Below are positions 3,442 through 63,313 of a stretch of 64,000 nt of DNA, piece by piece. Below the pieces are notes generated by a model, which worked only from the letters and a program-made list of their open reading frames with translations, searched no databases and was not told the origin of the DNA. The stretch's first letter is position 1. Every line of letters starts with the position of its first letter. Origin of the DNA: Anaerolineales bacterium (GTDB lineage: Bacteria; Chloroflexota; Anaerolineae; Anaerolineales; E44-bin32); NCBI GenBank assembly GCA_034417075.1, contig DAOULU010000038.1, positions 15,766-79,765 on the forward strand. The letters run 5' to 3'. A program made the translations under genes and the position numbers.

Positions 3442-4641
3442 ATGAAAATGAGAAACGGTATTGGCACGATCGTGATTCTGATCTCCTTTCTTGCCACAGT
3501 CACATGCAACAGCTTGTCGACGTTGGGGGAAAACATCATACAAAGTCTGGAACCCACAACCGACACACAAGATTCTCCAGCCGAAACGGAAGGTGAACCG
3601 GTCGATGTTCCGGACAACCAGAGCGTAATCGGAGATCTAGATCTGGCAGATATTTATGATCACGTCTATCCCGGCGTGGTCACGATTTGGACGTATGCCG
3701 ACATCGCAGAGAATGGCGATTCCAGACCATTGGGTCAAGGCTCGGGCTTTGTTGTAGATCAAGACGGTCACATCTTGACCAACCAGCACGTTGTCGAATC
3801 CGCATCCGAAATCGAAGTTGACTTTCCATCCGGATTGAAATCCTGGGCGGAATTAATCGGGACGGATCCCGATTCCGATTTGGCCGTGCTTGAAGTCGAC
3901 GTCCCCGCAGAAGACCTCTTCCCGATTCCGTTCGGAGATTCAGACCAGGTCCGTGTGGGTGAATTCGTCATTGCGGTGGGAAATCCGTTCAACTACGAAG
4001 GGACGATGACGCTCGGTATCGTCTCTTCCAAAGGACGCACCCTGGAATCCATCAACCCGGCTCCCGGCGGAGCGTTCTTTTCCGCCGGTGATTTAATCCA
4101 AACCGATGCCGCGATCAACCCCGGCAACTCGGGAGGGCCTCTTATCAACATGCGCGGGGAGGTCATCGGGATCAATCGGGCTATTTCCACGGAGAGCTTT
4201 AGTCCGACCGGCAACCCCGTTAATTCCGGCGTGGGATTCGCCATACCCATTAACATCGTCCGCCGCGTTTTGCCATTCCTGATCTCGGAAGGGAGTTACG
4301 AGTACCCCTATCTCGGCGTACAAAGTCTTGGGGAGTGGAATCTGCGCAGGATCGAATCGCTGGGCTTGCCACCCGAGGCCCTGGGTGCTTATATCACCTG
4401 CGTGAACGAGGGCAGCCCGGCCGAGGAAGCGGGACTTATCGGCTCCGGAAGCTGCGGAGACCCGGAAGTCCATGCGGGCGGCGATCTGATTATCGCCATC
4501 GACAACCAGCCCATCAGCCGCTTCTCTGAACTGCTTTCGTATCTGCTCAAACACACCGAAGTTGGACAAGTTGTAACGCTGACCATACTGCGCGACGGGG
4601 AAACTATCGATCTGCCGTTGACCATCGGGGCTCGCCCATGA
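3442..4641 (+). CDS. htrA: HtrA/DegP-family periplasmic serine protease with PDZ domain
   Basis: N-terminal hydrophobic anchor, trypsin-like triad context (TNQHVV, DLAVLEV, GNSGGPL) and a C-terminal PDZ-like region. Confidence 0.85.
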   Translation: MKMRNGIGTIVILISFLATVTCNSLSTLGENIIQSLEPTTDTQDSPAETEGEPVDVPDNQSVIGDLDLADIYDHVYPGVVTIWTYADIAENGDSRPLGQGSGFVVDQDGHILTNQHVVESASEIEVDFPSGLKSWAELIGTDPDSDLAVLEVDVPAEDLFPIPFGDSDQVRVGEFVIAVGNPFNYEGTMTLGIVSSKGRTLESINPAPGGAFFSAGDLIQTDAAINPGNSGGPLINMRGEVIGINRAISTESFSPTGNPVNSGVGFAIPINIVRRVLPFLISEGSYEYPYLGVQSLGEWNLRRIESLGLPPEALGAYITCVNEGSPAEEAGLIGSGSCGDPEVHAGGDLIIAIDNQPISRFSELLSYLLKHTEVGQVVTLTILRDGETIDLPLTIGARP

Positions 4642-5885: not shown

Positions 5886-6548
5886 TCACTCCGAGAACAG
5901 GGAACGTTCCAGAGCGAGAAGGTTAGAGGTGAGGCGCTCGAGATCTTGATCAAGAGAAAGCGCATCTTGTCCCAAATTATCCAGCAATTCTGCCAATTGA
6001 TCTCGAAGTGCTTGTACGGCCGTCGTTCCATCCGCACCGAGCCCGGCTTGCAAACTCGCCAGGCGATCATCGGTGCCCGCTAAAGCGGCACGAATTCCTA
6101 CCAGATCATCTTGCCCTAGGGCAACGCGCGCAGAAGAAACATCGACCAGGGCGTTGACCAACTGTACGTGCAGGTTCGCCTCATCGGCTTGCGCCTGGAT
6201 ATCGGCGATCTTTGCGTCACAATCTGCGCGGACGGATTCTTCAATCGTCGCACGTTCCGCCCCAAGAGTCGAGACTTGGCTCTGGAGGTCGTCTCTCTCC
6301 GCTCGGAGGTCACGCACCAGCGTGAACCAGGCGACCCCTACGCCCAGCCCAAAAACGACGGCCAAACCGATCACCCACAGCAAGAGTTTGCGCACGAATC
6401 CCTTGACCCGGTCCATTCGCCCGGAGGGGGGTTTCTGCTTCTTTACCGTCTTTTTCTTCCCGCGGGGCTTTTCTACTACATCGCTCGATGCAGCTGCTGC
6501 ATCAAAATCCGAGCGTTGTTCTTCGTCACGTTCATCATTAGGAACCAT
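5886..6548 (-). CDS. Single-pass membrane protein: basic N-terminal tail, TM helix, coiled-coil ectodomain (uncharacterised)
   Basis: Lys-rich tail (KPRGKKKTVKKQKPP), TM helix (LLLWVIGLAVVFGLGVGVAWF) and a heptad-rich remainder. ATG 6548 has a GAGGAGG Shine-Dalgarno 6 nt upstream. The gene overlaps the upstream gene's stop by 11 nt. Confidence 0.7.
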   Translation of the reverse strand: MVPNDERDEEQRSDFDAAAASSDVVEKPRGKKKTVKKQKPPSGRMDRVKGFVRKLLLWVIGLAVVFGLGVGVAWFTLVRDLRAERDDLQSQVSTLGAERATIEESVRADCDAKIADIQAQADEANLHVQLVNALVDVSSARVALGQDDLVGIRAALAGTDDRLASLQAGLGADGTTAVQALRDQLAELLDNLGQDALSLDQDLERLTSNLLALERSLFSE

Positions 6549-33965: not shown

Positions 33966-36900
33966 TTATGAGGCGCGTTCTTCGACGGTAGAATCCGGCT
34001 CGACAGGCAGCCAGATCGTGAAAGCACTGCCGGCTCCCTCTTCACTTTTCAGTGAAATCCACCCTTCATGTCGTTGGATGATCTCGTCGCAGATTGCCAA
34101 ACCAAGACCCGTCCCCGGCGTGCCGACTTTCCGGCTGGCCTTGCCGCGAAAGAATCGCTGGAACACGCGCGCTTGTTCCTCTTCCGTGATTCCGAGTCCC
34201 GTGTCTCTGACGGTCAGCGTCACCCAACGCTTCCCGTTTTCCTTCTGAATTGCCGTGGATATCGTCACACAACCTCCCGGGGACGTATAGTTCATCGCAT
34301 TCGTCATCAAGTTGGAAATGACCTGAGAAAGAAGACGATCGTCTGCAACAACATCGGGTAAATCCGTGGAAAATTCGAATCCCACCTGCAAATTTTTGTC
34401 CGCAAACAATCTCTTCCGATCTTCCACCAAGCCACGTGCGATGGTATTCAAATCGACGAGAGTTGGCTTCAATTCCAGCGTATCGGCATCCAGCCTGGAA
34501 ACGGTCAGCAAATCATCGATCAAGACAACCAAACGCTCGGTCTCGCGATTCAAAGTTGCTAGATAAGATTCATAGCGATCAGGTTTTCCCATACCCAGCA
34601 ATTCCAAGTAGAGCAAAATGTTGCTTAGAGGAGTGCGTAGTTCATGGGAGACATCCGAAACGAATTGCGTTTTTAATCGATCCGCTTCCTGGGATTTCTT
34701 CAACGCTTCAGCTAACTCTTCCGTTCGGTCAGCGATGGTTGCTTCAAGTTCCTCTGCATGCCGGCTCAACCTCTCGTAAAGAGCAGCATTTTCAATGGCG
34801 ATAGAAATGTTATCGGCGAGCAGCATAAGCAGACGCATGTCGTCTTCGCTAAGATCGTTACGAAGCGGAGATTCCACGTTTAACACTCCGATGACGACAT
34901 CGTCCGTCTGCAATGGGACCACAATTTCACATTGAGAGTCGGTACAACCCGATACGTACTCGGGGTCTAAACTTACATCGGGAACGAATATCGCTTCAGC
35001 CATGCGAGCTGCCCGACCCGTCACCCCCTGCGAAATGGGTAATCGGAAGGGAATCGCATCCTCGCTGCCACGAGCTGCTCGCAGTACGAGTTCATCGTCT
35101 TCGACAAGATAGATTTCAACGACGGGATATCCCAACTCCTCACCCACCTGTCTGACGACCTCGAATAAGAGCGACTGCATATTCAATCTGCGATTAACGA
35201 CTTGCGCCACGTGCCTCAAAGTGGTCACTTCCGAAAGCCGTCGATTGATTTGCTGATATTGTTCAGCGTTCGCCAGTGCCAAGCCGACTTGATGTGCAAT
35301 CGATTCGAGCAAATCGAGATGTTCGTTTCGAAATGCACCCACCTTCTTGTGAAATATCGCTATCACGGCTCGAAGATTCTCGTTGGCATAAACGGGAACG
35401 CACAACGCCGAACGTACATTTTCACCCACGCCGGGAATCCGCAGCCAAAGCTCATCTCCACGAACATCGGATCGCAGGATGGGCTCGCCATGCTCTGCAA
35501 CCCATCCGATTAACCCTTTTCCGACGCGCATCTCAAGGCGACTGTCCAAGTCGGTAATTGAGATTCGATCGCGACGGACAGAAGCGAGGAGCTGCATTCG
35601 GTCCCCATACGGGTCGAGCATGAACGCCTCGGTCGATTCACCCTCTAAATTATCATTGATCAGGGTCACTGCGCGTTGAAGAAGCTCCACGGGATCCAAC
35701 GTCTGTGAAACCACCTGGGCGATGTCGTGCAGTAGATATACTCGCTGGCGCTCGGATTCACTGGCCTCATACAGTCTGACATTCTCGATTGCAATTGCAG
35801 CTTGATTGGCCAAAATCCTCAACATGCGCAGTTCAACATCTTCGAACTCGTGAGCTTGTAAGTAGGCGACATTCATCACCCCAATGGTGCGCTCCCCGGT
35901 CTTCAATGGCATACCGACGATGGCACCTTCCCAGGGATCATCCTGATAAAGCTCGTGCTCAGCGGTACTGTTGATCACGATCGGTTTCCCTGTACGTGCC
36001 ACCTTGTATGTCAAACCATGCGGACGCGGTTCCGAGTATGGTTTATCGTGATCTTCACTAGCCCAACGTGCGGCGCCAAAAAAGACCTCATCCCCGTCGA
36101 ATAAAAAGATGTGCGCATCATCCGCATCTATGAATTCCAGGGTGTGCTTGAGAACATTTTCTAACACCGCCTTCGATTCCAGACTTGATATCATGCTCAA
36201 GCTGGCCTTACGCAGCGCCTCGAATTCCTCGCCGCGGCGTTTTTCCATTTGCAAACGTGCGATTCCGTGAGACAGATCATCCGCGACAATTTGCAACACT
36301 TCAATCATTTCGCCATTGAACGCTTCGGCTTCAGCTGAGACAACGTTGACCGAACCCAAGAGGCGGCCTTCCATCTGCAGGGGTAGAATTGCCAGCGAAT
36401 GAAAACCTCGCCGTTCGATCTCCCCACGCCACTCTGCCAGGCGATGGTCCCGTTGGATGTTGCGGAGTACAAAGGGATTGACATCCTGGGTATCTGCATC
36501 ATTAAATTCTTCTGTTGAATAAATACGGTCGATCAATGCTTCGAAAGTACTCAACCCACCAGTTTCTTCTCCGCACGAAGCCGCGATATTGAGGTCCCTA
36601 ATTCTTTCGTCGGCAAGTCTTACCCATACCAAACGATACCCCCCATACTCCAGCAACAAATGACAGACTTCTTCAATAAGTATTTCAGGCGCCCGGGCGC
36701 GGAGTACGCGTTCACGAACTTCATATAGCAGGCGAAAGGCTCCACTTTCTTGCAGTAATTGCCGCTCTAGATCTTCGAACGCCATGCGCAAATTCAGAGA
36801 ACCCCGTACGATTCCTAACGACGATCTGATCCCTTGCGTTTGGCCCCATCGGCCTTGCTCCAATTGCCGTTGTAGGTAGCGAAGATAGACGCTCACAAAT

Positions 36901-37568
36901 GGAAATAAAAAAAGACTCGATAGTGTCCACCCGGTCAGTTCGGTTTTTAGCACCCACGAAATATCGATCGTGTTCCAATAGCCTACAAAGGTAAATAAAA
37001 AAGCCGACATACAACCAGCCAGCATAGATCCAACCCATGCGAACCACACACCCTTGCGAGGCCAATACTTAATAATGAACTGATAAATCAAGGTGTTCGT
37101 ATAGATTCCGAAAATGAAGGCAAGAATATTGGCGATGTATTGTCGATATCCGAGAAGAGCGAGGATGGCGTCAAGGCTCGAAGATAGATCGCCGAACATC
37201 GCAGCAAACCAGCGCGTAGCGAGCGCTGTTAAAATTCCTGAAAGCAAGACGACTGCGCCAAGGTTAAAGGTAAGTAGATTTGCGCGCAGCGGCCCTGAAT
37301 ATGTGACGACCATCAAAAAGGTGGCGAATATCACCGGACCCAAAATTGGCGAAGAGAAAGAAAAAGACAGAGTTGAATTTTGTTGAATTACTAAAGGATT
37401 AGCCTGAATAAAGGCAATCAAGATCGGACGCCAGGTATGAATAACGGCCAAACCGACCAGCGCCACTCGCAGCAGCATTGGTTTGTACCGAATTCCAATG
37501 CGGTGAAGGGTGATGAACAATAACCCGAGTAACCACAGGCAAATGAGTAGAGATATACTTACATTCAT
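33966..37568 (-). CDS. Large sensor histidine kinase: polytopic N-terminus, multiple tandem GAF domains, HisKA, HATPase_c
   Basis: 1200 aa. About 8 helices in the first 230 aa are followed by at least four GAF-like repeats, the H-box SHELRTPLSNI, and NAMNYTSPGG / GTGLGLAI boxes. Confidence 0.9.
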   Translation of the reverse strand: MNVSISLLICLWLLGLLFITLHRIGIRYKPMLLRVALVGLAVIHTWRPILIAFIQANPLVIQQNSTLSFSFSSPILGPVIFATFLMVVTYSGPLRANLLTFNLGAVVLLSGILTALATRWFAAMFGDLSSSLDAILALLGYRQYIANILAFIFGIYTNTLIYQFIIKYWPRKGVWFAWVGSMLAGCMSAFLFTFVGYWNTIDISWVLKTELTGWTLSSLFLFPFVSVYLRYLQRQLEQGRWGQTQGIRSSLGIVRGSLNLRMAFEDLERQLLQESGAFRLLYEVRERVLRARAPEILIEEVCHLLLEYGGYRLVWVRLADERIRDLNIAASCGEETGGLSTFEALIDRIYSTEEFNDADTQDVNPFVLRNIQRDHRLAEWRGEIERRGFHSLAILPLQMEGRLLGSVNVVSAEAEAFNGEMIEVLQIVADDLSHGIARLQMEKRRGEEFEALRKASLSMISSLESKAVLENVLKHTLEFIDADDAHIFLFDGDEVFFGAARWASEDHDKPYSEPRPHGLTYKVARTGKPIVINSTAEHELYQDDPWEGAIVGMPLKTGERTIGVMNVAYLQAHEFEDVELRMLRILANQAAIAIENVRLYEASESERQRVYLLHDIAQVVSQTLDPVELLQRAVTLINDNLEGESTEAFMLDPYGDRMQLLASVRRDRISITDLDSRLEMRVGKGLIGWVAEHGEPILRSDVRGDELWLRIPGVGENVRSALCVPVYANENLRAVIAIFHKKVGAFRNEHLDLLESIAHQVGLALANAEQYQQINRRLSEVTTLRHVAQVVNRRLNMQSLLFEVVRQVGEELGYPVVEIYLVEDDELVLRAARGSEDAIPFRLPISQGVTGRAARMAEAIFVPDVSLDPEYVSGCTDSQCEIVVPLQTDDVVIGVLNVESPLRNDLSEDDMRLLMLLADNISIAIENAALYERLSRHAEELEATIADRTEELAEALKKSQEADRLKTQFVSDVSHELRTPLSNILLYLELLGMGKPDRYESYLATLNRETERLVVLIDDLLTVSRLDADTLELKPTLVDLNTIARGLVEDRKRLFADKNLQVGFEFSTDLPDVVADDRLLSQVISNLMTNAMNYTSPGGCVTISTAIQKENGKRWVTLTVRDTGLGITEEEQARVFQRFFRGKASRKVGTPGTGLGLAICDEIIQRHEGWISLKSEEGAGSAFTIWLPVEPDSTVEERAS

Positions 37569-37607
37569 ACCATGAAGTATTGATGATTATCGAACGAACA
37601 GCGTCGA

Positions 37608-37615
37608 ATGCCTTT
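37608..37615. promoter_or_regulatory. Overlapping divergent -10 boxes (plus TATACT 37610-37615 toward acnA; minus TATAAT 37613-37608 toward the GAF kinase)
   Basis: The sequence cgATTATACTc lies in the 126-nt divergent intergenic region. Confidence 0.35.
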
Positions 37616-37694
37616 CGATTATACTCTTTAAGTACAGTTCCACGAATTGAGAAAATAGTAGTGATTAAGTGAAAAGGATGAAACGGAGAAACAA

Positions 37695-40409
37695 ATGAAA
37701 GTGGACAGTTTCGGTGCAGTAGCCCAACTGAAGACAGAGATGGGGAAGGTTCGTATCTATCGACTGGCAGCACTCGAGGACGCTGGGGTCGCAAATATCG
37801 ATCGTCTCCCTTATTCCATTCGCGTTTTGCTGGAATCGGTGCTGCGGCAAGTGGATGGATATGTGATCAAATCCGAAGACATCATCAATCTCGCCGGGTG
37901 GCACCCAGACAAATCAAACCAAACCAACGTGCCTTTTAAACCCATGAGGGTGGTCATGCAGGATTTTACAGGCGTGCCGGCCATCGTCGATTTGGCAGCC
38001 ATGCGCTCCGCACTCGCGAGAGCAGGAGGGAATCCCGAGCGTATAAACCCGCATATCCCTGTAGATTTGGTGATCGACCATTCCGTCCAGGTGGATTACT
38101 TTGCCTCTGCAGATGCATTAGAACGCAATGCGGAGATTGAGTTCCAGCGGAATCGAGAGCGCTACGAATTCTTACGTTGGAGCCAAGAAGCGTTCGACGA
38201 CCTGCGCGTCGTCCCACCTGCGACGGGCATCGTTCACCAAGTCAATTTGGAATACCTCGCAAAGGTGGTTATGACCGCAAAGCAAGACGGAAAAACTCTC
38301 GCCTTTCCAGACACTCTGGTGGGCACCGATTCGCACACCACGATGATCAACGCTCTGGGTGTACTCGGTTGGGGCGTCGGCGGGATCGAAGCGGAGGCCG
38401 CCATCCTCGGGCAGCCACTCGTGATTCCCACGCCCGACGTCGTAGGATTTCGACTCACCGGCCAAATCCGGGAAGGAACAACGGCCACGGATGTCGTCCT
38501 CACGATCACGCAAATGCTTCGTCAGTACGGCGTTGTGGGAAAATTCGTGGAATTTTTTGGACCGGGATTGTCCAATCTTTCCATTCCGGATCGCGCTACG
38601 ATCTCCAACATGTCGCCCGAATATGGCGCTACGGTTGGGTTCTTCCCCGTCGATGACGAAACCCTACAATATCTCCGCTTGACGGGACGAAGTGAAAAGC
38701 GCATCGATCTCGTCGAACGCTATTGCAAAGAGCAAGCGCTGTTCCATACCCAAGATTCCCCCGCGCCTTCATTCAGTGCCGAACTCGAATTAGACCTCGG
38801 CACTGTCGAGACCAGCCTTGCTGGTCCCAAGCGACCGCAGGACCGAATCCCACTTTCCGAGATGAAATCGCGTTTCCACGAGATCCTGAGCGCGCCAATA
38901 CAGGAAGGTGGGTACGGATTGCAGGAAACCGATCTCGAACGGAACGCCACATTGCGATCGAACGGTAGCAGCGAAACCATTGCTCACGGTGCCTTAGTGA
39001 TTGCAGCGATCACGTCTTGCACAAATACCTCCAACCCCAGCGTGATGATCGGTGCTGGATTGTTGGCCAAGAACGCCGTGGAACGAGGTTTGAAGGTCAA
39101 ATCCTACGTGAAGACCAGCTTGGCTCCGGGGTCGAGAGTCGTCACAGAATACTTAGGCAAGGCCAATCTGCTCGATCCGCTTGCAAAACTGGGGTTCAAC
39201 GTTGTTGGTTACGGCTGTACGACGTGTATCGGGAACAGCGGTCCGCTGCCAGCGGAAGTCGCCAATGTCGTCACAGAAAATGACTTAATCTCTGCGGCGA
39301 TCCTTTCGGGCAATCGTAATTTCGAAGGACGAATCAATCCGTTTGTGCAGGCAAATTACCTGGCTTCTCCCCTGTTGGTCGTCGCATACGCGCTGGCCGG
39401 AAAGATAGACATCGACTTCAAATCGGAACCGATCGGGCACGATGGCGCGGGAGAACCGGTGTTCTTGAGTGACATCTGGCCATCGCAATCCCAAATCGCG
39501 GAGACGATCGAACAAACCGTCAATTCGAAAATTTTTCGAGAACGATATGCGGATGTATTTTCTGGCAACGAAACATGGAACGCGATCCCCGAAACGGGCG
39601 GAAGTCTATACGAGTGGGATCCTGATTCAACCTACATTCAAGAACCGCCTTTCTTTATCGATCTAGGATCGGATATCCTCGCAGTAAAGGAAATCCATGC
39701 TGCGCGCGTGCTCGCTTTTCTCGGCGACAGCATCACAACCGATCACATATCACCAGCCGGCGCAATACCCGCATCCGAACCGGCAGGCCAATATCTCCAA
39801 GAACACGATGTAAAGCCAAAGGATTTCAATTCCTTCGGTTCGCGGCGCGGAAATGACCGCGTAATGACACGCGGGACATTTGGCAACATCCGCCTCAAAA
39901 ACCTGCTTGTCCCCGGCGTGGAAGGCGGCTTCACGCTGCATTTCCCTGACGGCGAACAAATGAGTATTTACGAAGCTGCCATGAAGTACAAGGCTGAAGG
40001 TGTTCCGTTGATCGTCATTGCCGGAAAAGAGTACGGAACCGGGTCGTCCCGGGATTGGGCTGCAAAAGGCACGCTGCTTCTGGGTGTAAAAGCCGTAATC
40101 GCCGAATCCTACGAGCGCATTCACCGCTCGAATCTTGTTGGCATGGGTGTGCTGCCGCTGCAGTTCAAGCCGGGCGAAAACGCAGAAAAATTGGGGCTTA
40201 CGGGCTACGAAGTGTTCAACATCGAAGGCCTCAACGATGATATACAACCCGAGTCTGTTCTGCAGGTCCACGCTACTGGAGAGGACGACACGACAACCAG
40301 CTTCGACGTCCAAGTTCGAATCGATACACCTATCGAAATCGACTATTACCGCAACGGAGGAATCTTACACAGCGTCCTACGAAAAATGATCGTCGATTCA
40401 AACGCATAG
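37695..40409 (+). CDS. acnA: Aconitate hydratase A
   Basis: 904 aa with Fe-S cluster Cys contexts ([18 protein letters not shown]) and an overall AcnA/IRP-type sequence. Confidence 0.95.
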
Positions 40410-40532
40410 CTGTTCGTGTGACTTAACCCATAATCTTGCCGGAATTGGTACCATGGTTTGTTCGGCGATTCGCCCCGTAATTCCTGCCCCAACGACGATC
40501 GACTTGCACCATAATATTGTCGATCGTGGAAT

Positions 40533-40561
40533 CTTGTAGCATATCGTTGCCTTCTGTGAAA
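40533..40561 (+). repeat. Repeat copy 1: CTTGTAGCATATCGTTGCCTTCTGTGAAA
   Basis: See the finding on this repeat family. This copy is near-identical to 43127-43151 and partially matches 42915-42933 and 43153-43169. Confidence 0.8.
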
Positions 40562-40646
40562 GCATTATATAGATTAACTTCGGTAACTTTCTGGTAACTA
40601 ACCAACACTATAATCATCGTAAGAATGGATATGGGGAGATATTCCC

Positions 40647-42878
40647 ATGAAAGAAAAGATACTCAAACACCGATTCGTCGTGGTATTGTTTATCGGCGTC
40701 GTTCTTGCTGGCAGTGCTGGATACTTGACCTTAAAAGGTAGGTCAACGACTGACGGGAATGCCGCACAATTGCCACCTCGTCGGACTGACACGCCAAGTC
40801 CAACGATTACGCCTTCCAAAATAATTCCCGTAACGCCGTCACCCACCTTGACACCCACCATAATCCCTACTGAGCCACTTGCGACTGGATTGTCTCCGAT
40901 CGACGGAATGGAGATGGTGTTTGTGCCGGAAGGTCCCTTCTTAATGGGGCTTTCAGACGAAAATGTGGAATACATTATGGAAATGTGTGGCTCTGATTGC
41001 AGGCGGAACTCATTCCAATCGCAGCAACCTCAACATGAAGTTTACCTAGACTCCTATTGGATCGACCGCACTGAGGTGACCAATGAGATGTACGCGGCAT
41101 TCCTGAACCAAGAGGGAAATCAGACGTTCGGTGACGGGTATTACATCTGGCTTGAAGAGGAGTGGTCAAGTCTTGAGAACGTCGAGGGTGAATGGATACC
41201 GAAAAGTGGCTATGCTGACCATCCAGTGGAAGCCGTGTCATGGTATGGTGCTCGGGCGTACTGCGCCTGGGCTGGGCGTCGCTTGCCCACAGAGGCAGAG
41301 TGGGAGAAAGCCGCGCGCGGGGAAGATGGCAGGCTTTTTCCCTGGGGGAATGATTTCAATCGGAGTTTGTTTAATACAAAAGGGGACGGTGTCTCCGGAA
41401 CCATGGCGGTGGGGAGCTTTCCTGGTAACGCAAGCCCATATGGAGCACTGGATATGCTCGGGAACGTAGAAGAGTGGGTGGTTGACTTACACGACAAGGA
41501 ATACTATGCTGTGTCGCCCGCAGTTAATCCCACCGGGCCATATTCGGAAAACGCAGAGCTTTACTATTGGCGAGTGCTAAGAGGCGGAAGTTATTATTTT
41601 ATCAACCAGGGATTATCGGCTGCGTATCGCCAAGGTGCTCCAGGATATGATAATCTTCACGGTGTTGGATTTCGCTGCGTAAGCATAGCGGGCGAAATTC
41701 CTGTTTACGCCACGTCTACTCCTGTGCAAACTCCCATGATCGATATTGGAGAAACCATCGCGCTTGATTGGATCAACATGATGAATGAAACGGATGGGTG
41801 GGGGAGAAGCGCTGAAACCATCTTGAACACCCGTGACGGCGGACAGACATGGCGTGAGGCGTCGCCACCAGACAATACAGCGGGATATGTCGAAGAATTC
41901 GACAAAAGATTGTATTTTGAAGCAGTCGATGCGGATCACGCTTGGGTGGTCTACGCGCCAAAACCCTCTGCAGCGAGCTATGGTAGCTATGGTTGTGTAC
42001 CTTCGGATGCACAAGTATGGTATACCTCCGATGGCGGGCAATCCTGGGATCCCAGCCAACCGCTCATGCACGATGTGGTGAATATGTCATGTAGGGCTTC
42101 GATCTATATGTCGGATACACAAATGGGTTGGTTGAGCATTAATGGCTGGTATACAGCCGCAGGCCTGCATACGGAGATGCAATTATTCAAAACCACGGAC
42201 GGCGGTAATACCTGGGAGACTGTAGAAGCAACCTGGTGCTACTCGGAGGTTACATGTTCTTCCTACGCGCCCTGGCTGTCTGAAAAAGCGTTCTACGGTC
42301 AGTCCGGTTGGTCGTTGGAAAACATGCATGGTTGTTATCCCTGCTACGGCAACACTCCGGCGCCTGCCTACTTTGTCTCGACCGATGGCGGCGCCACCTG
42401 GCATTATCGCTATTTGCCTTCACCGACAGGCGATCCTGATTTCTACGAAGGGTACTTTTTTTGCGAACCCTATCAGCTCACACTCAGTACCGACAAGATC
42501 GTTCATTTGCAGCTTTCTTGTTACCAATACGAAGGAGATGCATCGCCTGGCCCGAAGCCTGGACCGAAGGACTACGTTTACGCCAGCGAGGACGGCGGTC
42601 TCACCTGGACGATACACGAACTGCCGAGCTCTTCGGGTCGAATGCTGTTTTTCGATAAGTACCATGGCCTGCTCTTGGACCGGGAGATGTGGCGCACAGA
42701 GGATGGTGGATCAACCTGGGAACACATCAACACCGTTACATGGGATGGTCAATTCAGTTTCATTGACCCCTGGTACGGTTGGGCGGTTACCGAGAGCGAA
42801 GAAGGAGAAACAGCCCTTGTCGCTACAACGAATGGGGGCGAAACCTGGAAAATTCTGACTCCGGTAGAAGCTGAATAA
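40647..42878 (+). CDS. Membrane-anchored fusion: formylglycine-generating-enzyme (SUMF1/FGE) family domain + seven Asp-box (BNR/Ycf48-like) beta-propeller
   Basis: TM anchor and a TPSPTITPS linker. FGE hallmarks are present (HPVEAVSWYGARAYCAWAGRRLPTEAEWEKAARG, RVLRGGSYY, GFRCV). Seven xDGGxxW motifs follow: RDGGQTW, SDGGQSW, TDGGNTW, TDGGATW, EDGGLTW, EDGGSTW and TNGGETW. Confidence 0.8.
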   Translation: MKEKILKHRFVVVLFIGVVLAGSAGYLTLKGRSTTDGNAAQLPPRRTDTPSPTITPSKIIPVTPSPTLTPTIIPTEPLATGLSPIDGMEMVFVPEGPFLMGLSDENVEYIMEMCGSDCRRNSFQSQQPQHEVYLDSYWIDRTEVTNEMYAAFLNQEGNQTFGDGYYIWLEEEWSSLENVEGEWIPKSGYADHPVEAVSWYGARAYCAWAGRRLPTEAEWEKAARGEDGRLFPWGNDFNRSLFNTKGDGVSGTMAVGSFPGNASPYGALDMLGNVEEWVVDLHDKEYYAVSPAVNPTGPYSENAELYYWRVLRGGSYYFINQGLSAAYRQGAPGYDNLHGVGFRCVSIAGEIPVYATSTPVQTPMIDIGETIALDWINMMNETDGWGRSAETILNTRDGGQTWREASPPDNTAGYVEEFDKRLYFEAVDADHAWVVYAPKPSAASYGSYGCVPSDAQVWYTSDGGQSWDPSQPLMHDVVNMSCRASIYMSDTQMGWLSINGWYTAAGLHTEMQLFKTTDGGNTWETVEATWCYSEVTCSSYAPWLSEKAFYGQSGWSLENMHGCYPCYGNTPAPAYFVSTDGGATWHYRYLPSPTGDPDFYEGYFFCEPYQLTLSTDKIVHLQLSCYQYEGDASPGPKPGPKDYVYASEDGGLTWTIHELPSSSGRMLFFDKYHGLLLDREMWRTEDGGSTWEHINTVTWDGQFSFIDPWYGWAVTESEEGETALVATTNGGETWKILTPVEAE

Positions 42879-42914
42879 GGATCCATGAAATTAATGGGCC
42901 GTCCCATAGAATCC

Positions 42915-42933
42915 CTTGCAGCATATCGTGGCC
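42915..42933 (+). repeat. Repeat copy 2 (degenerate): CTTGCAGCATATCGTGGCC
   Basis: Aligned by eye to copy 1 over the first 24 positions, 19 of 24 match. Confidence 0.55.
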
Positions 42934-43126
42934 CTTGGTAAAAAAGCAGGGATTCCTAGATGGAATAGTCTAGGTGCACTGAACCAATCCGCCAATCCAA
43001 TCCCTTGTGCTGGCCGAAAATGCACATCCGTCCGATTGAATATCTTTGAATATTTGATTTTCTCCACGATCAACATATTCTTTGTAAAAATGGGGATTTA
43101 TCGACAAATTTTCACATAAATTTTAA

Positions 43127-43193
43127 TAGCATATCATTGCCGTGTGTGAAACTGTAGCATATCGTTTCCGCAGCCGTAGTATTATGCTACAAG
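43127..43193 (+). repeat. Repeat copies 3 and 4 plus one inverted core: TAGCATATCATTGCCGTGTGTGAAA, TGTAGCATATCGTTTCC, and inverted TATGCTACAAG
   Basis: Copy 3 (43127-43151) matches copy 1 at 22 of 25 positions. Copy 4 lies at 43153-43169. The sequence at 43183-43193 is the exact reverse complement of CTTGTAGCATA in copy 1. TTTCACA (43110-43116) and TGTGAAA (43145-43151) also form an inverted pair. Confidence 0.8.
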
Positions 43194-43320
43194 AAGCAAT
43201 TCGGATACCGAACGGCTGATCGATATCCGAAATCGTGTTTAAAAAAAAAGCCCCCGATCTAGATTCGAAAACTGGAGCTTTGGTTTTAAGATCGATGCCA
43301 ATATACACCGGAAGGCCCGA

Positions 43321-44124
43321 TCAACTTAGCGCGTGATATTCCGCCTCAACTTGCTCGATATCATCCATCAATTGCTCTGCCATCTCACCCAATAAATCCC
43401 GCCCCTCGCGCTGTGCGATGGTGACATCCAACATCAGACGGACCGTTTCTGAATTGACGAGACGATTGAGCTCGCTCTCCAGGTTACGTACCACACGGTC
43501 GAGGCGCTGCAATTCTTCTCGTAATTCAATGATCGTTTCGGCTCGGCTCTTCCTACGGGGAGGTTCGGGTGAACTCGGTGGTTCCAGGAATGACTGCAGC
43601 GTCGCTGCGTCGCCCGCAGCGTAGGCTTGATTAATTTTCGTCATTATTTCCGCACGTCGTTTTTTATCATAAATCTCGGTAACTAAGTCCGGGTGATAGA
43701 GCTTGGCCAGCGTTCGAAACAAAGTTTTAAGCTCTTCCTTGGAGATTTCGTTCACCGGCTCTTCAGGAGCCGGCGGTGGTGGTGGTGCCTCGCGTCGAGA
43801 CCACGTTCGATTGAATTGTTCCATCACGTCCGGGATTTCATCTTCATCTGAACGGTCATCCCACTGCGATTGATGCGTTGTCCGTCTACGCGCGTCATTT
43901 AAGTGATTCTGGGCATCTTCCAAACTTCGTTCAAGATGTCCAACACGAGTTTCGTATTCGATCTCGAAACGCGATAACTCATTACGCGTGTCCGAGAGTT
44001 CCAACTCGAGATCCGCGATCGTGTCCTGCCGGTCCGCAATTTTCGTCTTTAAGTCGTAAATTTCGGGATCGGTTGCCCGGTCGACCGCACGCTTTAAAGA
44101 ACCTTGGCTACGTCGCTTAAACAT
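43321..44124 (-). CDS. Coiled-coil protein with an internal J domain (HPD motif)
   Basis: LKTLFRTLAKLYHPDLVTEIYDKKRRAEIMTKINQAYAAGD is a J-domain helix II-HPD-helix III. It is flanked by heptad-rich regions, with a PPPPPAP linker. A candidate own promoter, TTGCGA-16-TATATT, lies in the upstream gap. Confidence 0.75.
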   Translation of the reverse strand: MFKRRSQGSLKRAVDRATDPEIYDLKTKIADRQDTIADLELELSDTRNELSRFEIEYETRVGHLERSLEDAQNHLNDARRRTTHQSQWDDRSDEDEIPDVMEQFNRTWSRREAPPPPPAPEEPVNEISKEELKTLFRTLAKLYHPDLVTEIYDKKRRAEIMTKINQAYAAGDAATLQSFLEPPSSPEPPRRKSRAETIIELREELQRLDRVVRNLESELNRLVNSETVRLMLDVTIAQREGRDLLGEMAEQLMDDIEQVEAEYHALS

Positions 44125-44286
44125 CACTCTGTCCCCAAAATAAAAACTGCGCTATTTATTTCACGTACGCAGAAATTTTCCCCCATCAAATTCAATATAT
44201 CCAAAATCCCTTATTTCGCAACACGTTACGTTGGTACTGAACGGATCATATCGTACCTTTTCACCAGCCGTAGGTCACAATCGCGC

Positions 44287-44667
44287 TCAACCTTGCTGTA
44301 ACACAGTCGGCTCATCGTTGGGTAATCCAGGCACAATTAACATCATCATCTGGCGGCACTTGAATACCCGCCATTGAAGAAACTGCGCTGGGTATGTTTC
44401 ACCTATATTCTCCTGCCATTCTTCAAGACTCCCCAGTTGCTCCAACGCACATATCGGGACCAATTCACCATCGTGCCCCAATCGAGAGATCTGCTCAGTT
44501 TGATTGGCTTCCAATTTTTTTAACCCGGGCATGCGTCCATCTTGAGAATATTTGCACGAACCCTCAAATTGTGTTGTTATCTTTCCCGAGCAAATCAGCT
44601 CATGCGATATCAATCGCCCCCTTGAGAAAAGGAAAAGCGCCTGAGATTTGCCGTGATTTTCGTGCAT
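44287..44667 (-). CDS. Hypothetical 126-aa protein (no recognisable family)
   Basis: The ORF has a GGGGGTG Shine-Dalgarno 4-5 nt upstream of ATG 44667. Its composition is more protein-like than the antisense ORF at 44394-44744. Confidence 0.5.
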   Translation of the reverse strand: MHENHGKSQALFLFSRGRLISHELICSGKITTQFEGSCKYSQDGRMPGLKKLEANQTEQISRLGHDGELVPICALEQLGSLEEWQENIGETYPAQFLQWRVFKCRQMMMLIVPGLPNDEPTVLQQG

Positions 44668-44748
44668 TTACACCCCCTGTCGCATGTTTCTTCTCGCGCA
44701 AACCAGGCACCCACCCGGACCATTACCTACGATCGACGTTGTGACATT

Positions 44749-45294
44749 TTACACGGTATCGTCATCCTTGTCAATACGCAAATTTGACTGCGGGAACATC
44801 TCCTTCTCCCCCATACCCAGATAAAAACCCCGCTGCTCTGCGACCATCGTCAGGTGTTTTGACCGCGATCGCGTGGGAGTATATGCCGAGGTCTCCCACT
44901 CACTTACCGTCTGCTGACGGACACCGAGCATATCGGCCATCCTTGCTTGACTGACGCCGAGGTACGCACGAAATGCGCGAATCATGTCCGCGTCCCAGCG
45001 AATCTCGTCCCCATCTCTGTGCACTTTGTAGCGCAAGGTAGGACGGTGAAACACAATAACCTTCTTAACCAAGTCCACATTCGCAACGCGAAAACCTGTT
45101 TCGAGCCATGCTGCAGCCTGAACTCCACCACGAGCACGGTTGCTCCAAAAAGAGCGCCCCTTTTTCGCCGATTCCGGCAACGGCGCATCCAGAACATTCT
45201 CGATTTCGATAAACGACAGTTGGATCCGCTTCTTTGAACTGCGACCCAGGTATTGATACAACGGAAAATATTTTGAATCGGTTTTAACGACCAT
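44749..45294 (-). CDS. Two-domain protein: uncharacterised N-terminal domain + C-terminal XRE-family helix-turn-helix
   Basis: HTH segment (FRAYLGVSQARMADMLGVRQQTVSEWETS). The N-terminal motif is KYFPLYQYL ... LSFIEIENVLDAPLPESAKKGRSFWSN. Confidence 0.75.
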   Translation of the reverse strand: MVVKTDSKYFPLYQYLGRSSKKRIQLSFIEIENVLDAPLPESAKKGRSFWSNRARGGVQAAAWLETGFRVANVDLVKKVIVFHRPTLRYKVHRDGDEIRWDADMIRAFRAYLGVSQARMADMLGVRQQTVSEWETSAYTPTRSRSKHLTMVAEQRGFYLGMGEKEMFPQSNLRIDKDDDTV

Positions 45295-45419
45295 AATGAC
45301 TCGCTCTGTAATTAGCCTTCCATCACTCTATTTTAATGAGTTCTGATTTTGAAACCAGTTGGAATATCGATCTTCGAGGATGCAAGCCCGAATGATGACA
45401 CTTGGTGGGTTAAATGATG

Positions 45420-45476
45420 AAAAGCGAGGCGGCGGCAGGAAGCCTCGCTTTTCTACGGCTTCTCTTCCGAGAAGCC
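45420..45476. terminator. Two adjacent GC-rich hairpins (11-bp and 8-bp stems); probable terminator of the LysM transcript and insulator ahead of the XRE gene
   Basis: The first hairpin is AAAAGCGAGGC-11 nt-GCCTCGCTTTT (45420-45452), with U-tracts on both strands. The second is GGCTTCTC-TTCC-GAGAAGCC (45457-45476). Confidence 0.6.
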
Positions 45477-45731
45477 TTGGAGGGGTTGACGTTCCCGGTA
45501 GCCACCTCCTGTTGACGAAAAACCCAGATTGATTCTGAGCCTCGTCGGCGGGGTATCCAGCCCCGCGTGTCTTACGCACACATTATATGAACATTTTTAC
45601 CTTGCAGGGTCTCATTGTAAGTAAGCTGTAAGCAACCCCTACATGCAACACGGGAGGGTTTTTTGTGATCCGGCTTGTGGCGTGATCAGAAAATGTCGTA
45701 GCGCGCTGATAAGGTTTCGAGGTTCTGGTCT

Positions 45732-46565
45732 TTACCGCAGAGAGCGAGGCGTACCGCGCCGCAGCTGGGCCGCATAGTAGCCCAAACCACCTCCAGCTAC
45801 GAGCAGGAGAAGTCCCAGGAAACCGAGCACCGTCGAACGTCCTCCGCCCGAGTCGCCAAGAATATCTCGGATCGCGGAACTCGGCTGTGCACCGAATTGG
45901 ACGTATTTGATTTCACCCGGATTCAACCGAACCGGCAAGCTCATCACCGTTGTCGGATTGTGGTCCGGAGGGACCGCGGCGCTGACGTTGTAATCCCCAT
46001 TATCTAAGTTCGTAAAACAATACCCATCAGCGTTTTCCGGGTCGAGATCCGTCGTATATTCACCGGCGACGACACCATTCACATCCGCGACGCTCACACG
46101 GCCGTCCGCCAACATCCCTTCGAGTTCATCCCGGCTGCCGTTCCCGTTTTGATCCAGGAACATGGCCACGCATATCTCTCCCGAACCCACGATGGGAGTG
46201 GCCGTCGGAGCTTCTACCGTTGGCGTTACATCCGTGAGAGGTTCACTGGTAGAGATGGATGGGCCCGCCAGACCCAATTCCAGCTCCATCCCTGGAGTTA
46301 TGAAGTCACCCGGTTGAAGGCCGTTACGAGAATACAGTTCTTCGACAGTGATTCCCGCAAGCGCTGCGATGGTCCAGGGCGAATCCCCTTCCTGGACGAT
46401 GTAGATAATTCGGCCGTCCCCTCTTGGTGTGGGCGTCATGAAAGATGATTGTGGCAATCCTTGTTCCCCGTATCCGACTTCCAAGGGAATGAAAGCAAAG
46501 ACCAGAACACTGGCGACCAACAATAGTGCGACGAATGAAACGGAACGCTTCAGATGAATGGACAT
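45732..46565 (-). CDS. LysM-domain protein with SdrD-B/Cna-B-like domain and C-terminal TM anchor
   Basis: N-terminal anchor, LysM (YIVQEGDSPWTIAALAGITVEELYSRNGL), the segment DQNGNGSRDELE ... GDYNVSA, and a hydrophobic C-terminus. Confidence 0.8.
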   Translation of the reverse strand: MSIHLKRSVSFVALLLVASVLVFAFIPLEVGYGEQGLPQSSFMTPTPRGDGRIIYIVQEGDSPWTIAALAGITVEELYSRNGLQPGDFITPGMELELGLAGPSISTSEPLTDVTPTVEAPTATPIVGSGEICVAMFLDQNGNGSRDELEGMLADGRVSVADVNGVVAGEYTTDLDPENADGYCFTNLDNGDYNVSAAVPPDHNPTTVMSLPVRLNPGEIKYVQFGAQPSSAIRDILGDSGGGRSTVLGFLGLLLLVAGGGLGYYAAQLRRGTPRSLR

Positions 46566-46722
46566 TGTATTACACTCACGGTTGGATTATAGCGCCTTCG
46601 AGCGCAATGGTGTAGGGGGCAGTCCAGATTCGAACATCGCTGCGTCCGCAGCCCCTAATGCACGGATCGACAAGGAACATGGAGCGGATTCCCATCGTTC
46701 CCTCCCAACTCCACATCCATCG

Positions 46723-46731
46723 TGCTATACT
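46723..46731 (+). promoter_or_regulatory. Candidate extended -10 TGCTATACT for purA
   Basis: It lies 17 nt upstream of ATG 46749, with an AGGTG Shine-Dalgarno in between. Confidence 0.45.
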
Positions 46732-46748
46732 CCCGCAAGAGGTGATGC

Positions 46749-48050
46749 ATGCCACTTGATGTCGTCGTGGGTTCACAATGGGGTGATGAGGGCAAAGGCC
46801 GCATTACCGATCTACTCGCCGCCGAGGCGGACATCGTCGCGCGGTTCAGCGGTGGAGACAATGCCGGCCATAGCGTCACCGTCGGAGATCGACTATACAA
46901 ACTTCATCTCGTGCCCTCCGGCATTGTCCACTCCCATACGACGTGCATGCTCGGATCCGGCATGGTCGTCAATCCAGTCCGGCTGCTCGAGGAAATGGAT
47001 TATCTGGACGCAAACGGCGTTGACATCTCACCCGAGCGCCTGAAAATTTCGAGTGCCGCACACATTATTACGCCATCACACATCGCACTCGACAAGGCCA
47101 GAGAAGCACAGCGTGGAGAGGCCGGTATCGGCACGACCCAACGCGGCATCGGCCCCGCCTACACCGATAAAGCGACTCGCAGTGGCATCCGTGCCGGCAG
47201 CATGGAGAACCCCGAAGAATTCGCCGATCTGATCGAGAAACACACCCAGATCGCAGTGGATATGTTGGAAAAAGTTTTTCACTACCAGGCGCCTGATCCT
47301 GAAGAAGTTGCGCGCGCCTACTGCGATTTCGCCAAACGCCTTCAACCTTACCTGACCGACGTCGGCGCACGGATTGCGGACGCCCTCGATCAGGGAAAAA
47401 ACGTGCTGGCCGAAGGTGCGCAAGGCACGTTGTTGGATCTCGATCACGGCACTTACCCCTTCGTCACCAGTTCCTACCCCACAACAGCCGGCGCACTCAT
47501 GGGACTTGGTGTCGGACCGAAGCACTTGCGCCGTATCATCGGCGTAGCGAAAAGTTTTCAGACCAGAGTGGGTAGTGGGGCGTTCCCCACGGAATGTGAA
47601 GGTGACATCGCCCAGCATTTACGTGGCTCGGGCGATCAGCCCTGGGACGAGTTCGGCACCACGACCGGGCGCCCACGGCGCTGTGGATGGTTCGATGGTG
47701 TTCTGCTGCGGTATGCAGTTCGCATCAACAGCCTCACAGAATTGGCGCTCACCAAACTCGACATTCTCACGGGCCTCGATCCCGTTCAGATTTGCACGTC
47801 ATATCAATACGCCGGCACGAGCCACAACGACTTGCCGGCCGACCCGACCCATCTGGCCGAGTTTTCACCACAATACGAAGCAGCGCCGGGATGGGACGCC
47901 GACATCACCCAAGCCCGACATTGGAACGACTTACCCCAGGAAGCGCAAGCCTACGTCCGTCGAGTGCAAGAAGTAGCCAACACGCCGATCCGCTTGATCT
48001 CGGTTGGTCCGGAACGCGGGCAGGTAATCCAGAACAGCGATGCGTCCTGA
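46749..48050 (+). CDS. purA: Adenylosuccinate synthase
   Basis: GSQWGDEGKGRITD P-loop and GTTQRGIGPAY; 433 aa. Confidence 0.95.
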   Translation: MPLDVVVGSQWGDEGKGRITDLLAAEADIVARFSGGDNAGHSVTVGDRLYKLHLVPSGIVHSHTTCMLGSGMVVNPVRLLEEMDYLDANGVDISPERLKISSAAHIITPSHIALDKAREAQRGEAGIGTTQRGIGPAYTDKATRSGIRAGSMENPEEFADLIEKHTQIAVDMLEKVFHYQAPDPEEVARAYCDFAKRLQPYLTDVGARIADALDQGKNVLAEGAQGTLLDLDHGTYPFVTSSYPTTAGALMGLGVGPKHLRRIIGVAKSFQTRVGSGAFPTECEGDIAQHLRGSGDQPWDEFGTTTGRPRRCGWFDGVLLRYAVRINSLTELALTKLDILTGLDPVQICTSYQYAGTSHNDLPADPTHLAEFSPQYEAAPGWDADITQARHWNDLPQEAQAYVRRVQEVANTPIRLISVGPERGQVIQNSDAS

Positions 48051-61008: not shown

Positions 61009-61052
61009 ATTATAGCACGGCAGCGGCAACCTTCGCTCGCCCATGCTACAAT
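61009..61052. promoter_or_regulatory. Back-to-back divergent extended -10 boxes: minus TGCTATAAT (61017-61009) and plus TGCTACAAT (61044-61052)
   Basis: The plus-strand box ends 7 nt before ATG 61060, making that gene a leaderless candidate. The minus-strand box lies 19 nt upstream of GTG 60989. Confidence 0.45.
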
Positions 61053-62727: not shown

Positions 62728-63238
62728 AATCGTTACCCCACCAAATCCAACGTTGCGCCAGCGCGCCAAGAACATACGTAACATTACACCGGCTATCGAA
62801 AGTCTGATTGGGGACATGATCGAAACCATGCGTGCCGCCAAAGGCGTAGGGTTGGCCGCACCGCAGGTGGACATCGGCCAACGCGTGATCGTCGTCGAGT
62901 ATGGTGAGGGCTCCGAAGATCCCGAAAAGGAAAACAAACCCGCCAAGCTGTACGTCGTCGTAAACCCCGAAATCGTGCGCCATTCGAAGGAAACGATCTT
63001 GGGGAACGAAGCCTGCCTGTCCATCCCCGGATACTACGGTGAAGTCGTGCGCTACGAGAAAGTCACGGTCAAAGGCCTCGACCGGAACGGAAAAACTTTT
63101 CGCTTGAAGCCCAAAGGCTGGCTCGCGCGAATTTTCCAACATGAAATCGATCACATCAACGGCGTTCTCTTCATCGATCGTGCCAACGAAGTCTGGAAAA
63201 TCGAAGAAACCCAGGTTGAAGCTCCCCCGGGCGCGTAG
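62714..63238 (+). CDS. def: Peptide deformylase
   Basis: GVGLAAPQV, EACLSIPG and QHEIDHING motifs. Confidence 0.95.
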   Translation: MAIREIVTPPNPTLRQRAKNIRNITPAIESLIGDMIETMRAAKGVGLAAPQVDIGQRVIVVEYGEGSEDPEKENKPAKLYVVVNPEIVRHSKETILGNEACLSIPGYYGEVVRYEKVTVKGLDRNGKTFRLKPKGWLARIFQHEIDHINGVLFIDRANEVWKIEETQVEAPPGA

Positions 63239-63304: not shown

Positions 63305-63313
63305 TGCTACAAT
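63305..63313 (+). promoter_or_regulatory. Candidate extended -10 TGCTACAAT 10 nt upstream of the recF ATG
   Basis: The sequence is ccTATGCTACAATccatgcgccgATG, with no Shine-Dalgarno. Confidence 0.45.

Follow-up and report, generated by a model that had tools for sequence, protein, structure and literature searches.

A promoter-bearing gene between acnA and a DnaJ-like gene in an Anaerolineales genome is bounded by modules of a multi-copy repeat family and was probably inserted as a unit

To our knowledge, most known bacterial mobility systems move either genes (as cassettes or islands) or promoters (as miniature inverted-repeat transposable elements (MITEs) or as outward promoters of insertion sequences (IS)), and not both as one bounded unit. 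Short repeats form a further group. The bacterial interspersed mosaic elements and repetitive extragenic palindromes (BIME/REP) of Escherichia coli, the BOX elements of Streptococcus pneumoniae and the Correia and ERIC repeats are multi-copy, extragenic and composed of recombined modules with tandem sub-units and hairpins; some carry promoters, and they lead to assembly breaks. Here we describe a locus that shares these traits. It lies in a stretch of 64,000 nucleotides (nt), called the window in the following, from an Anaerolineales bacterium (assembly GCA_034417075.1, contig DAOULU010000038.1, positions 15,766 to 79,765). In the window, a gene with an FGE-sulfatase domain and a BNR/Sortilin-type propeller (the FGE-propeller gene) stands between acnA and a convergent gene for a DnaJ-like protein of 267 amino acids (aa), and copies of a short repeat are found on both sides of it. 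In our judgement, the probable explanation is that these repeats belong to family modules, which form the ends of an inserted, promoter-bearing gene segment.

The modules, termed R3' (upstream of the gene) and R5' (downstream of it), differ from BIME/REP, BOX, Correia and ERIC elements in that they are longer (160-230 nt), that one is fused to a predicted complete promoter and 5' untranslated region (UTR), and that two of them bracket a 2.2-kb gene; neither terminal inverted repeats nor a clear target duplication or a RAYT-type or other transposase were found at this locus. With regard to REP, BIME and REPIN elements, which are short extragenic palindromic units associated with a RAYT gene, hairpins and an extragenic multi-copy distribution were seen. 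The terminal inverted repeats of a MITE or another non-autonomous DDE transposon are missing. As to the small size and high copy number of MITEs, gene-less copies of about 220-250 nt occur in relatives, with seven exact-pattern matches in one metagenome; the window element measures 2.8 kb with its gene.

A class of putative mobile promoters has been defined by the similarity of the -150 to -50 region alone (Nijveen, Matus-Garcia and van Passel 2012; PMC3575422). As in that class, near-identical upstream regions, longer than binding sites, precede unrelated genes across taxa. The two repeat units uA and uB of R3' reach the mobile-promoter threshold, which asks for 80% identity or more across 50 nt or more before non-homologous genes. 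They are nearly invariant 5' of WD40 genes (L091, L101; loci compared with the window are given L numbers), of a PD40+BNR gene (L019), of a gene for a 460-aa protein without Pfam match (L093) and of FGE+BNR genes (window, L012), all from different loci. In contrast to the putative mobile promoters, the family described here has a 3' partner module and gene-less copies, forms a head-to-tail joint and includes a putative insertion documented by an empty site.

Contigs of relatives were obtained via close homologues of the 267-aa protein, to which the following identities refer. In L107-L109 (83% identity) and L116-L117 (74%) the neighbourhood is syntenic and acnA is directly convergent with the 267-aa gene, without the FGE gene. 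The gene is likewise missing in L110-L113 (85%) and L115 (89%), where small unrelated open reading frames (ORFs) lie beyond the shared terminator hairpin. Using blastn, we found window positions 36001-40399 and 43317-47000 to be colinear with L108, the gap between them being 138 nt in L108 and 2917 nt in the window. Comparison at base level with L115 (TAGCT/ATACGGGAAC...) and L110 sets the extra DNA at the insert coordinates of Table 1, where it reads GTTCG-TGTGACTTAACCC ... CTACAAGAAGCAA-TTCGG; no remnants of R3' or R5' were seen in the empty sites of these two relatives. An empty site in the source population would read CATAGCT(GTTCGG)ATACCGAAC, and a circular or tandem junction of the insert ...CTACAAGAAGCAA-TTCG-TGTGACTTAACCC. 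The insert starts at most 5 nt from the R3' terminus and ends at most 5 nt from the R5' terminus. It is not a chimera, because independent assemblies (L002, L003, L114) cover both junctions. Among the origins that the initial annotation had offered for the repeats, footprints or recombination sites that delivered the 2.2-kb gene are best supported, given the syntenic relatives without the gene and the coincidence of insert ends with module boundaries. The comparison with related genomes proposed there also points to the FGE gene beside acnA as an insertion bounded by repeat modules.

With identities of 74-82%, the modules of the window recur in further genomes and metagenomes of Anaerolineales (the relatives are annotated as Anaerolineales or Anaerolineaceae), either 5' of unrelated exported beta-propeller genes or without a gene. 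In this range of identity R3' aligns with copies in L019, L089-L102 and L012. A profile of 12 R3' arrays gave 38 matches in 826 kb, redundant loci of the same contig being counted, and about 20 of these are full-length and start at model position 1. The exact 24-nt pattern AGCATATCRTTKCCNNNTGTGAAA occurs at 19 sites in 18 JGI metagenome contigs (seven in one metagenome); 17 of the 19 lie within R3'-type or R5'-type modules, and the other two are chance matches without flanking similarity. Behind promoter-type R3' copies we found mutually non-homologous cargo, namely FGE+BNR proteins, WD40 propellers, PD40+BNR proteins and the 460-aa protein without Pfam match. Gene-less, truncated or nested copies are present in L090, L095, L100, L102, L105 and L106, the truncated and nested R3' copies being those of L100, L105 and L106.

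The 5' boundary of R3' is sharp and lies at TGTGACTTAACCC (TGTGACTTAACCCATAATCTTGCC), position 40417. In nearly all copies the base preceding GTGAC is T (T/GTGAC), and the sequence upstream of it is unrelated across at least 12 contexts. Homologues of the FGE-propeller gene (36-60% identity; the best relative in the scan of the genome collection has 52%) are found in unrelated genomic contexts with flanks that resemble those of the window. In such contexts the gene keeps the repeats (L019, L012, L006, L004/L022), whereas the initial annotation had considered that relatives might have it without them. No viral contig carries the exact pattern, and the plasmid and phage collections gave no blastn match, so that a phage or plasmid origin is unsupported. 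Three independent short-read contigs of the window's species (L002, L003, L114) all end inside copies 3-4, as expected of a repeat in a de Bruijn assembly, and the family explains the recurrent contig breaks in these metagenome-assembled genomes (MAGs).

In L019, L093 and L095 we observed R5' directly before R3' in a head-to-tail joint, TTATGCTACAAGAA-N8-10-TGTGACTTAACCC, with variable spacer bases; L102 has a variant hairpin at the R5' place of the joint. L093 also provides a second case of the order R3'-gene-R5', followed by another R3'. A search for homologues of the neighbour of this L093 cassette, by which a second empty site might have been recognised, gave no match. As the R5'/R3' joint exists elsewhere, the window carries its two halves permuted, at opposite ends of the insert. 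This topology would be expected for a unit cut from a head-to-tail array at the joints, or for a circular form opened at the joint. We propose that a portable gene segment, which brings its own predicted promoter and has family repeats at its ends, was inserted between acnA and the convergent 267-aa gene. Its modules are parts of a mosaic repeat family that has many copies and is specific to one lineage, a clade of Anaerolineales; R3' is a unit array fused to a promoter and R5' a 3' module closing with a two-tier hairpin. The segment may have come as a whole out of a tandem array or a circular form, through recombination at the R5'/R3' joint or close to it. If this is true, a gene travelled with its regulatory region, which would be a concrete case in an uncultured, poorly studied phylum.

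Several observations weigh against this proposal. There are no terminal inverted repeats when TGTGACTTAACCC is compared with the reverse complement of the right terminus (TTGCTTCTTGTAGC), and the only inverted sequence in the termini of relatives is the subterminal 13-mer unit. No clear target duplication was seen: TTCG stands at both junctions (40413-40416, 43200-43203) and is absent from the empty sites of L115 and L110, and these four shared nucleotides could be due to chance. No transposase or recombinase was seen in the insert or next to it. Insert and flanks do not differ in GC content. The R5' end adjoins unique sequence only in this species (window and strain L114), which makes the terminus a single case. 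As to the copy number per genome, the 64 kb of the window hold this one locus only. The direct repeat GGTAAC-N5-GGTAAC upstream of the gene was rejected as a Pho box, as the pstS upstream region of L104 does not contain it. Moreover, the preference for insertion over loss rests on parsimony and boundary coincidence and is not proven.

Alternatively, the FGE gene could be ancestral at this place and deleted in the relatives, the flanks being diverged intergenic DNA whose likeness to other loci arose via gene conversion among paralogues. Such a history would agree with the GC content, with the use of parsimony as the only argument for insertion and with a variable spacer between acnA and the 267-aa gene (a 107-aa ORF in L110; 153-aa and 78-aa ORFs in L115). 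However, at least four lineages (74-89% identity in the 267-aa protein) are without the gene, and several independent deletions would be needed; the missing segment is bounded within 5 nt of the R3' and R5' termini, and homologues in unrelated contexts keep the modules. We consider loss from the relatives quite unlikely. In a separate observation, the spacer holds nothing in some relatives, while the ORFs of L110 (6556-7240) and L115 (1711-2568; without Pfam match) lie between the shared terminator hairpin and the 267-aa gene.

The short repeats in the window are real, and chance as their origin is excluded. All five copies reported in the initial annotation (copies 1 to 4 and an inverted core) were found at the positions given, copy 3 being identical to copy 1 at 22 of 25 positions, and together they exceed the chance expectation in window-based statistics. 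The 25-mer of copy 1, with up to three mismatches, matches only copies 1 and 3 and had no match in 100 shuffles. For the 15-mer TAGCATATCGTTGCC (the TAGCATATCGTTGCCC-type core) six matches with up to three mismatches compare with 1.0 expected, a number that no shuffle reached, and its four matches with at most two mismatches are all copies already reported. We counted exactly two sites of the 11-mer CTTGTAGCATA, one per strand (0.03 expected). The claim that the motif is confined to this locus within the 64 kb holds as well, since a weight-matrix scan and a profile search gave nothing comparable elsewhere; a weak match at 63234 coincides with a gene's stop codon and was discarded as a chance match.

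The motifs of 10-25 nt proved to be sub-repeats of 160-230-nt modules of a multi-copy family, which was invisible to the earlier reader. The repeats are not free-standing, as each is a unit inside a larger conserved module. One unit has 28-30 nt and consists of the core CATAWYNTTGCCG, 3-4 nt and TGTGAAA. Units recur with a period of 28-30 nt at both ends of the segment, once inverted at the terminus. Besides the five copies, three further units had been overlooked, namely u1, uA and the full inverted unit at the R5' end (Table 1); uA and uB both terminate in GTGRAA. Copy 2, the unit after the stop codon of the gene, has comparable counterparts after the stop codons of family genes in L004, L006 and L019. 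It changes fast: relative to a strain of 97% identity, the aligned part of the 3' flank has 11 substitutions, and four of them are in copy 2. The idea that copy 2 forms the loop of a terminator hairpin was rejected, the fold being not significant (z=-1.4 and -1.15), and a dif/Xer-like 28-nt site was discarded on inspection, as the unit arms are not mutually palindromic.

In alignments of 12-15 R3' copies, hardly any variation is seen in uA-uB and in the first 27 nt, and the middle is variable. The module has two alternative 3' ends. In the promoter type, the unit array is followed by the GGTAAC repeat, a -10 box, the 5' UTR and a gene; the gene-less type terminates in a hairpin module of about 50 nt (...GGACGAGGTTTTTCCCCCCTACA), after which the similarity stops. 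A separate hairpin-forming module of about 50 nt (AGAGGGGGACTTGATGCTTAATCCATCCGGACGAGGTTTTTCCCCCCTACA) has a sharp 3' end and was noticed in L090, L091, L093 (e.g. 3683-3713), L096, L100, L102 and L105; in L101 it separates, as an insertion, the unit array from the GTAAC promoter, and it does not occur in the window.

In the window the GGTAAC repeat lies 10 nt upstream of the predicted -10 box TATAAT, and the same distance to the -10 box is found in L006, L007, L011, L012, L013, L019, L022, L091 and L093. GGTAAC-N5-GGTAAC occurs only eight times in 514 kb of loci, six of these within the conserved promoter module 5' of a family gene. The position of the -10 box is kept in the promoters of paralogues as TGCTATACT, TGCTATATT or TATATT, and a conserved 5' UTR leads from there to the start codon. 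The pho box of E. coli consists of two hexamer direct repeats with an 11-nt period, which take the place of a -35 element and lie 10 nt 5' of the -10 box. By comparison with this architecture, the geometry of PhoB/OmpR-type promoters is found in the window and in at least nine loci. The left array, whose units lie about 60-120 nt 5' of the predicted transcription start (near 40621), may be the upstream region of a response-regulator-type promoter. An FGE+BNR paralogue (1140 aa) with a full R3' was noticed directly 3' of pstSCAB (L104 4494-9574 / L012 1-700), and a divergent pstB-phoU pair adjoins this paralogue.

In the simplest reading, the units would be binding sites of one sequence-specific DNA-binding protein, whose role could be regulatory or architectural or could lie in recombination. 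The gene beyond the 267-aa gene encodes a 126-aa protein and is followed by a gene for an XRE-type helix-turn-helix (HTH)/DUF7662 protein. Genomes that do not have the insert also carry the local HTH regulator in synteny, so that this regulator is not specifically linked to the insert.

A regulator-binding array had been offered as another origin of the repeats. It is plausible for the upstream units, which are the most conserved and close to the promoter, but it is not the whole story, since units are also found 3' of the gene and in gene-less copies. In its purely regulatory form, this explanation takes the units as operator or enhancer sites for a regulon of exported propeller genes, their likeness as the outcome of selection or duplication, and the 3' copies as the start of the upstream region of a lost neighbouring paralogue. 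The fixed distance of uA and uB, the most conserved part of R3', to a conserved promoter would be understandable in this way, as would tandem paralogues with shared promoters in L007 and L013 and the position of R5' directly 5' of R3' in L019, L093 and L095, as for one long upstream region. Gene-less copies between convergent genes (L102) and truncated or nested ones (L100, L106) do not fit, however, and about 160 nt conserved at 75-80% across genomes, with cargo that is unrelated or 36-50% identical, goes far beyond the needs of a binding site. Furthermore, the ends of the window insert are module ends, for which two independent deletions at the same joint would be needed. A purely regulatory array is thus possible, but not likely.

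The R5' module of the window has 80.6% identity over 191 nt with L019 5963-6153, which belongs to another genome (MAG N14_70), and its terminal part is also present in L093 and L095. In relatives, R5' terminates in a two-tier hairpin with the outer stem GTAGCATA/TATGCTAC and an inner stem TTGCCG/CGGCAA or TGGCCG/CGGCCA, the 3' arm being a complete minus-strand unit (CATAATTTTGCCG). Fold z values range from -4.7 to -7.7 in L019, L093, L095 and L102 and amount to -0.9 in the window. Among seven sequences, five of the 16 pairs show compensatory changes; the covariation score was matched by none of 500 shuffles and collapses in slid controls. Copy 4 and the inverted core had been described as an 8-bp stem with a 21-nt loop. 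The loop was confirmed, the stem measures 9 bp, and the structure is, as judged from these alignments, a decayed version of the two-tier hairpin. A second inverted pair, TTTCACA/TGTGAAA, is not kept in the homologous module of L019 and is probably due to chance. A small minus-strand ORF in R5' (43076-42891), whose translation IKYSKxFxRTDVHFRPAQ looked conserved with L019, was ruled out: L097 and L102 keep only a 23-nt palindromic core, and the flanking "protein" differs. Independently of this, the first 23 nt of R5' (TGTGSTGGCCGAAAATGYACATC), a small palindrome, were noticed as inverted copies in L097 (24-411) and L102 (3669-4263), where they bracket composites of 390-600 nt containing an R3' array.

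The modules might also be structured RNAs, such as a 5' leader, a small RNA or a 3' stabiliser, rather than DNA sites. The R5' hairpin covaries and could stabilise an mRNA 3' end as REP elements do. However, no U-run follows this hairpin on either strand, for which reason it is not a canonical intrinsic terminator, and the units are direct repeats and not complementary. For R3' no fold is conserved (178 columns give -7 kcal/mol and a single compensatory pair), and Rfam families were found neither at gathering scores over the whole window nor at E<=1 in 40380-43340. With no conserved RNA fold and no Rfam match, the constraint on R3' most likely acts at the DNA level, and we give the structured-RNA explanation very little credence.

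The third origin considered in the initial annotation, decayed promoters, is not borne out. Cryptic sigma-70 promoters could be formed by TTCACA-N16-TGCTACAAG on the minus strand, or on the plus strand by TTGCCG of one unit and CATAWT of the next, and TTGCCG-N15/17-CATAWT spacings do occur between adjacent units. The reverse complement of the core resembles the extended -10 sequence TGCTACAAT, which is enriched in the window (17 versus 9 expected). Yet each minus-strand "-10" is without the final T (TACAAG, TATTAA, TACTAA), the plus-strand spacings differ (10, 15 and 17 nt), and conservation extends well past the promoter hexamers. In addition, transcription on the minus strand would enter acnA or the FGE gene in the antisense direction. 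Such promoters are a very unlikely source of the repeats. The count of 17 refers to TGCTACAAT/TGCTATAAT with up to one mismatch and includes sites at 61009-61052 and 63305-63313; those at 61009 (-) and 61044 (+) form a divergent pair.

Among gene-mobilising systems, integron cassettes with attC are similar in that a gene is followed by an imperfect 3' hairpin site, which in arrays abuts the start of the next unit; the topology of the window would correspond to a circularly permuted unit. In contrast to integron cassettes, the boundary here lies 8-13 nt past the stem, the segment has its own predicted promoter, and its arms of about 200 nt contain iterated units. A conserved, imperfect, attC-like 3' hairpin is present (two-tier, five compensatory pairs) and decayed in the window. 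The attC cores RYYYAAC/GTTRRRY were not found: there is no GTTRRRY at either junction, and the boundary reads ...CAAGAARYAA-N4-6-TGTGAC. As regards intI/attI, the genes called up to 10 kb to the left and right include none with an integrase domain, a search that did not extend to the remainder of the genome. The arm-type sites of attP in phages and integrative and conjugative elements offer a further parallel, as copies of a short motif flank the joint and the arms come to lie at opposite ends of the insert after insertion (attL/attR). Here, by contrast, the insert has no integrase, four nucleotides (TTCG) are shared at the junctions, and the joint spacer differs between loci. It is conceivable, though unlikely, that the family represents an undescribed Anaerolineales gene-cassette system. 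Promoter-bearing cassettes of exported propeller proteins would then have ends that are halves of a recombination site of about 400 nt (iterated 13-mer "arm" units and the covarying hairpin). The recombinase would be encoded elsewhere, and a circular intermediate would give rise to arrays (L019, L093, L095) and solitary insertions (window).

The 24-nt pattern and the 166-column profile provide a sequence handle for an inventory of the family, for the unit-binding protein and for excision or junction products in reads. The features of the locus are listed in Table 1.

Table 1. Features of the acnA/267-aa locus, in window coordinates.
Feature	Position	Strand	Basis or remark
acnA, left flank of insertion site	37695-40409	+	Pfam; synteny
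Insert (R3', FGE-propeller gene, 3' flank with R5')	40412-43204	.	2.79 kb; not in syntenic relatives
R3' module	40417-40646	+	u1, uA, uB, GGTAAC-N5-GGTAAC, TATAAT, 5' UTR
R3' unit array (u1, u2 remnant, uA, uB)	40417-40574	+	profile match, model positions 1-166, E=4e-44; alignments
Unit core u1 CATAATCTTGCCG	40429-40441	+	exact match to CATAWYNTTGCCG; kept in all R3' copies; not in initial annotation
Unit uA CTTGCACCATAATATTGTCGATCGTGGAAT	40503-40532	+	module map; nearly invariant over 15 copies; not in initial annotation
Unit uB (copy 1)	40533-40561	+	module map and alignment
Direct repeat GGTAAC-N5-GGTAAC (CGGTAACTTTCTGGTAAC, GGTAACTTTCTGGTAAC)	40582-40598	+	11-nt period
Predicted -10 box TATAAT of FGE-propeller gene	40609-40614	+	read from sequence
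Shine-Dalgarno sequence GGGGAG	40633-40638	+	read from sequence
FGE-sulfatase and BNR/Sortilin-type propeller gene, 743 aa, cargo	40647-42878	+	Pfam; homologues
Unit copy 2, degenerate	42915-42943 (as first noted 42915-42933)	+	begins 37 nt past stop codon
R5' module, from TGTGCTGGCCGAAAATGCACATC to ...TTATGCTACAAGAAGCAA	43006-43199	+	copies 3, 4 and terminal hairpin
Unit copy 3	43123-43151 (match to copy 1: 43127-43151)	+	R5' module
Unit copy 4, 5' arm of terminal hairpin	43152-43170 (as first noted 43153-43169)	+	R5' module
R5' terminal hairpin	43153-43191	+	outer 9-bp stem retained; inner stem gone in window
Inverted unit, 3' arm of hairpin	43174-43193 (core 43183-43193)	-	inner part decayed in this genome
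Terminator-like hairpins of 267-aa gene	43200-43231, 43249-43273		
267-aa DnaJ-like gene, right flank	43321-44124	-	Pfam; synteny

Some further observations concern single copies and strains. An annotated 64-aa ORF (40423-40617, minus strand) lies entirely within the non-coding R3' and is probably spurious, so that the module can serve to flag it. A second R3' copy of L019 is interrupted (6244-6378), shortly before the contig ends, by an IS30-like element, whose terminus CGTAGATTCAAC... is similar to the inverted repeat of IS30 and whose ORF begins with MRTYAQLTQEQRY. The FGE-propeller homologue of L004 (5667-7928; GCA_964587065.1), which has 59% identity, is probably a pseudogene, since a change of TGG to TAG in the conserved YWIDRTEVT motif splits it with an in-frame stop. 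Relative to the strain of 97% identity, six substitutions cluster at 41858-41884 of the window, and a 3-nt indel is found at 41983-41985; both places belong to the linker that connects the FGE domain with the propeller. Finally, the window shows no substitutions against the strains L002 and L003 over the 554 nt from 40332 to 40885, a tract that spans the 3' end of acnA, the whole R3' and the initial 240 nt of the FGE-propeller gene. The remainder of the 3.4-kb alignment is about 1.8% different, with 62 substitutions in total, which suggests that the identical stretch is a recent recombination tract or under strong constraint.

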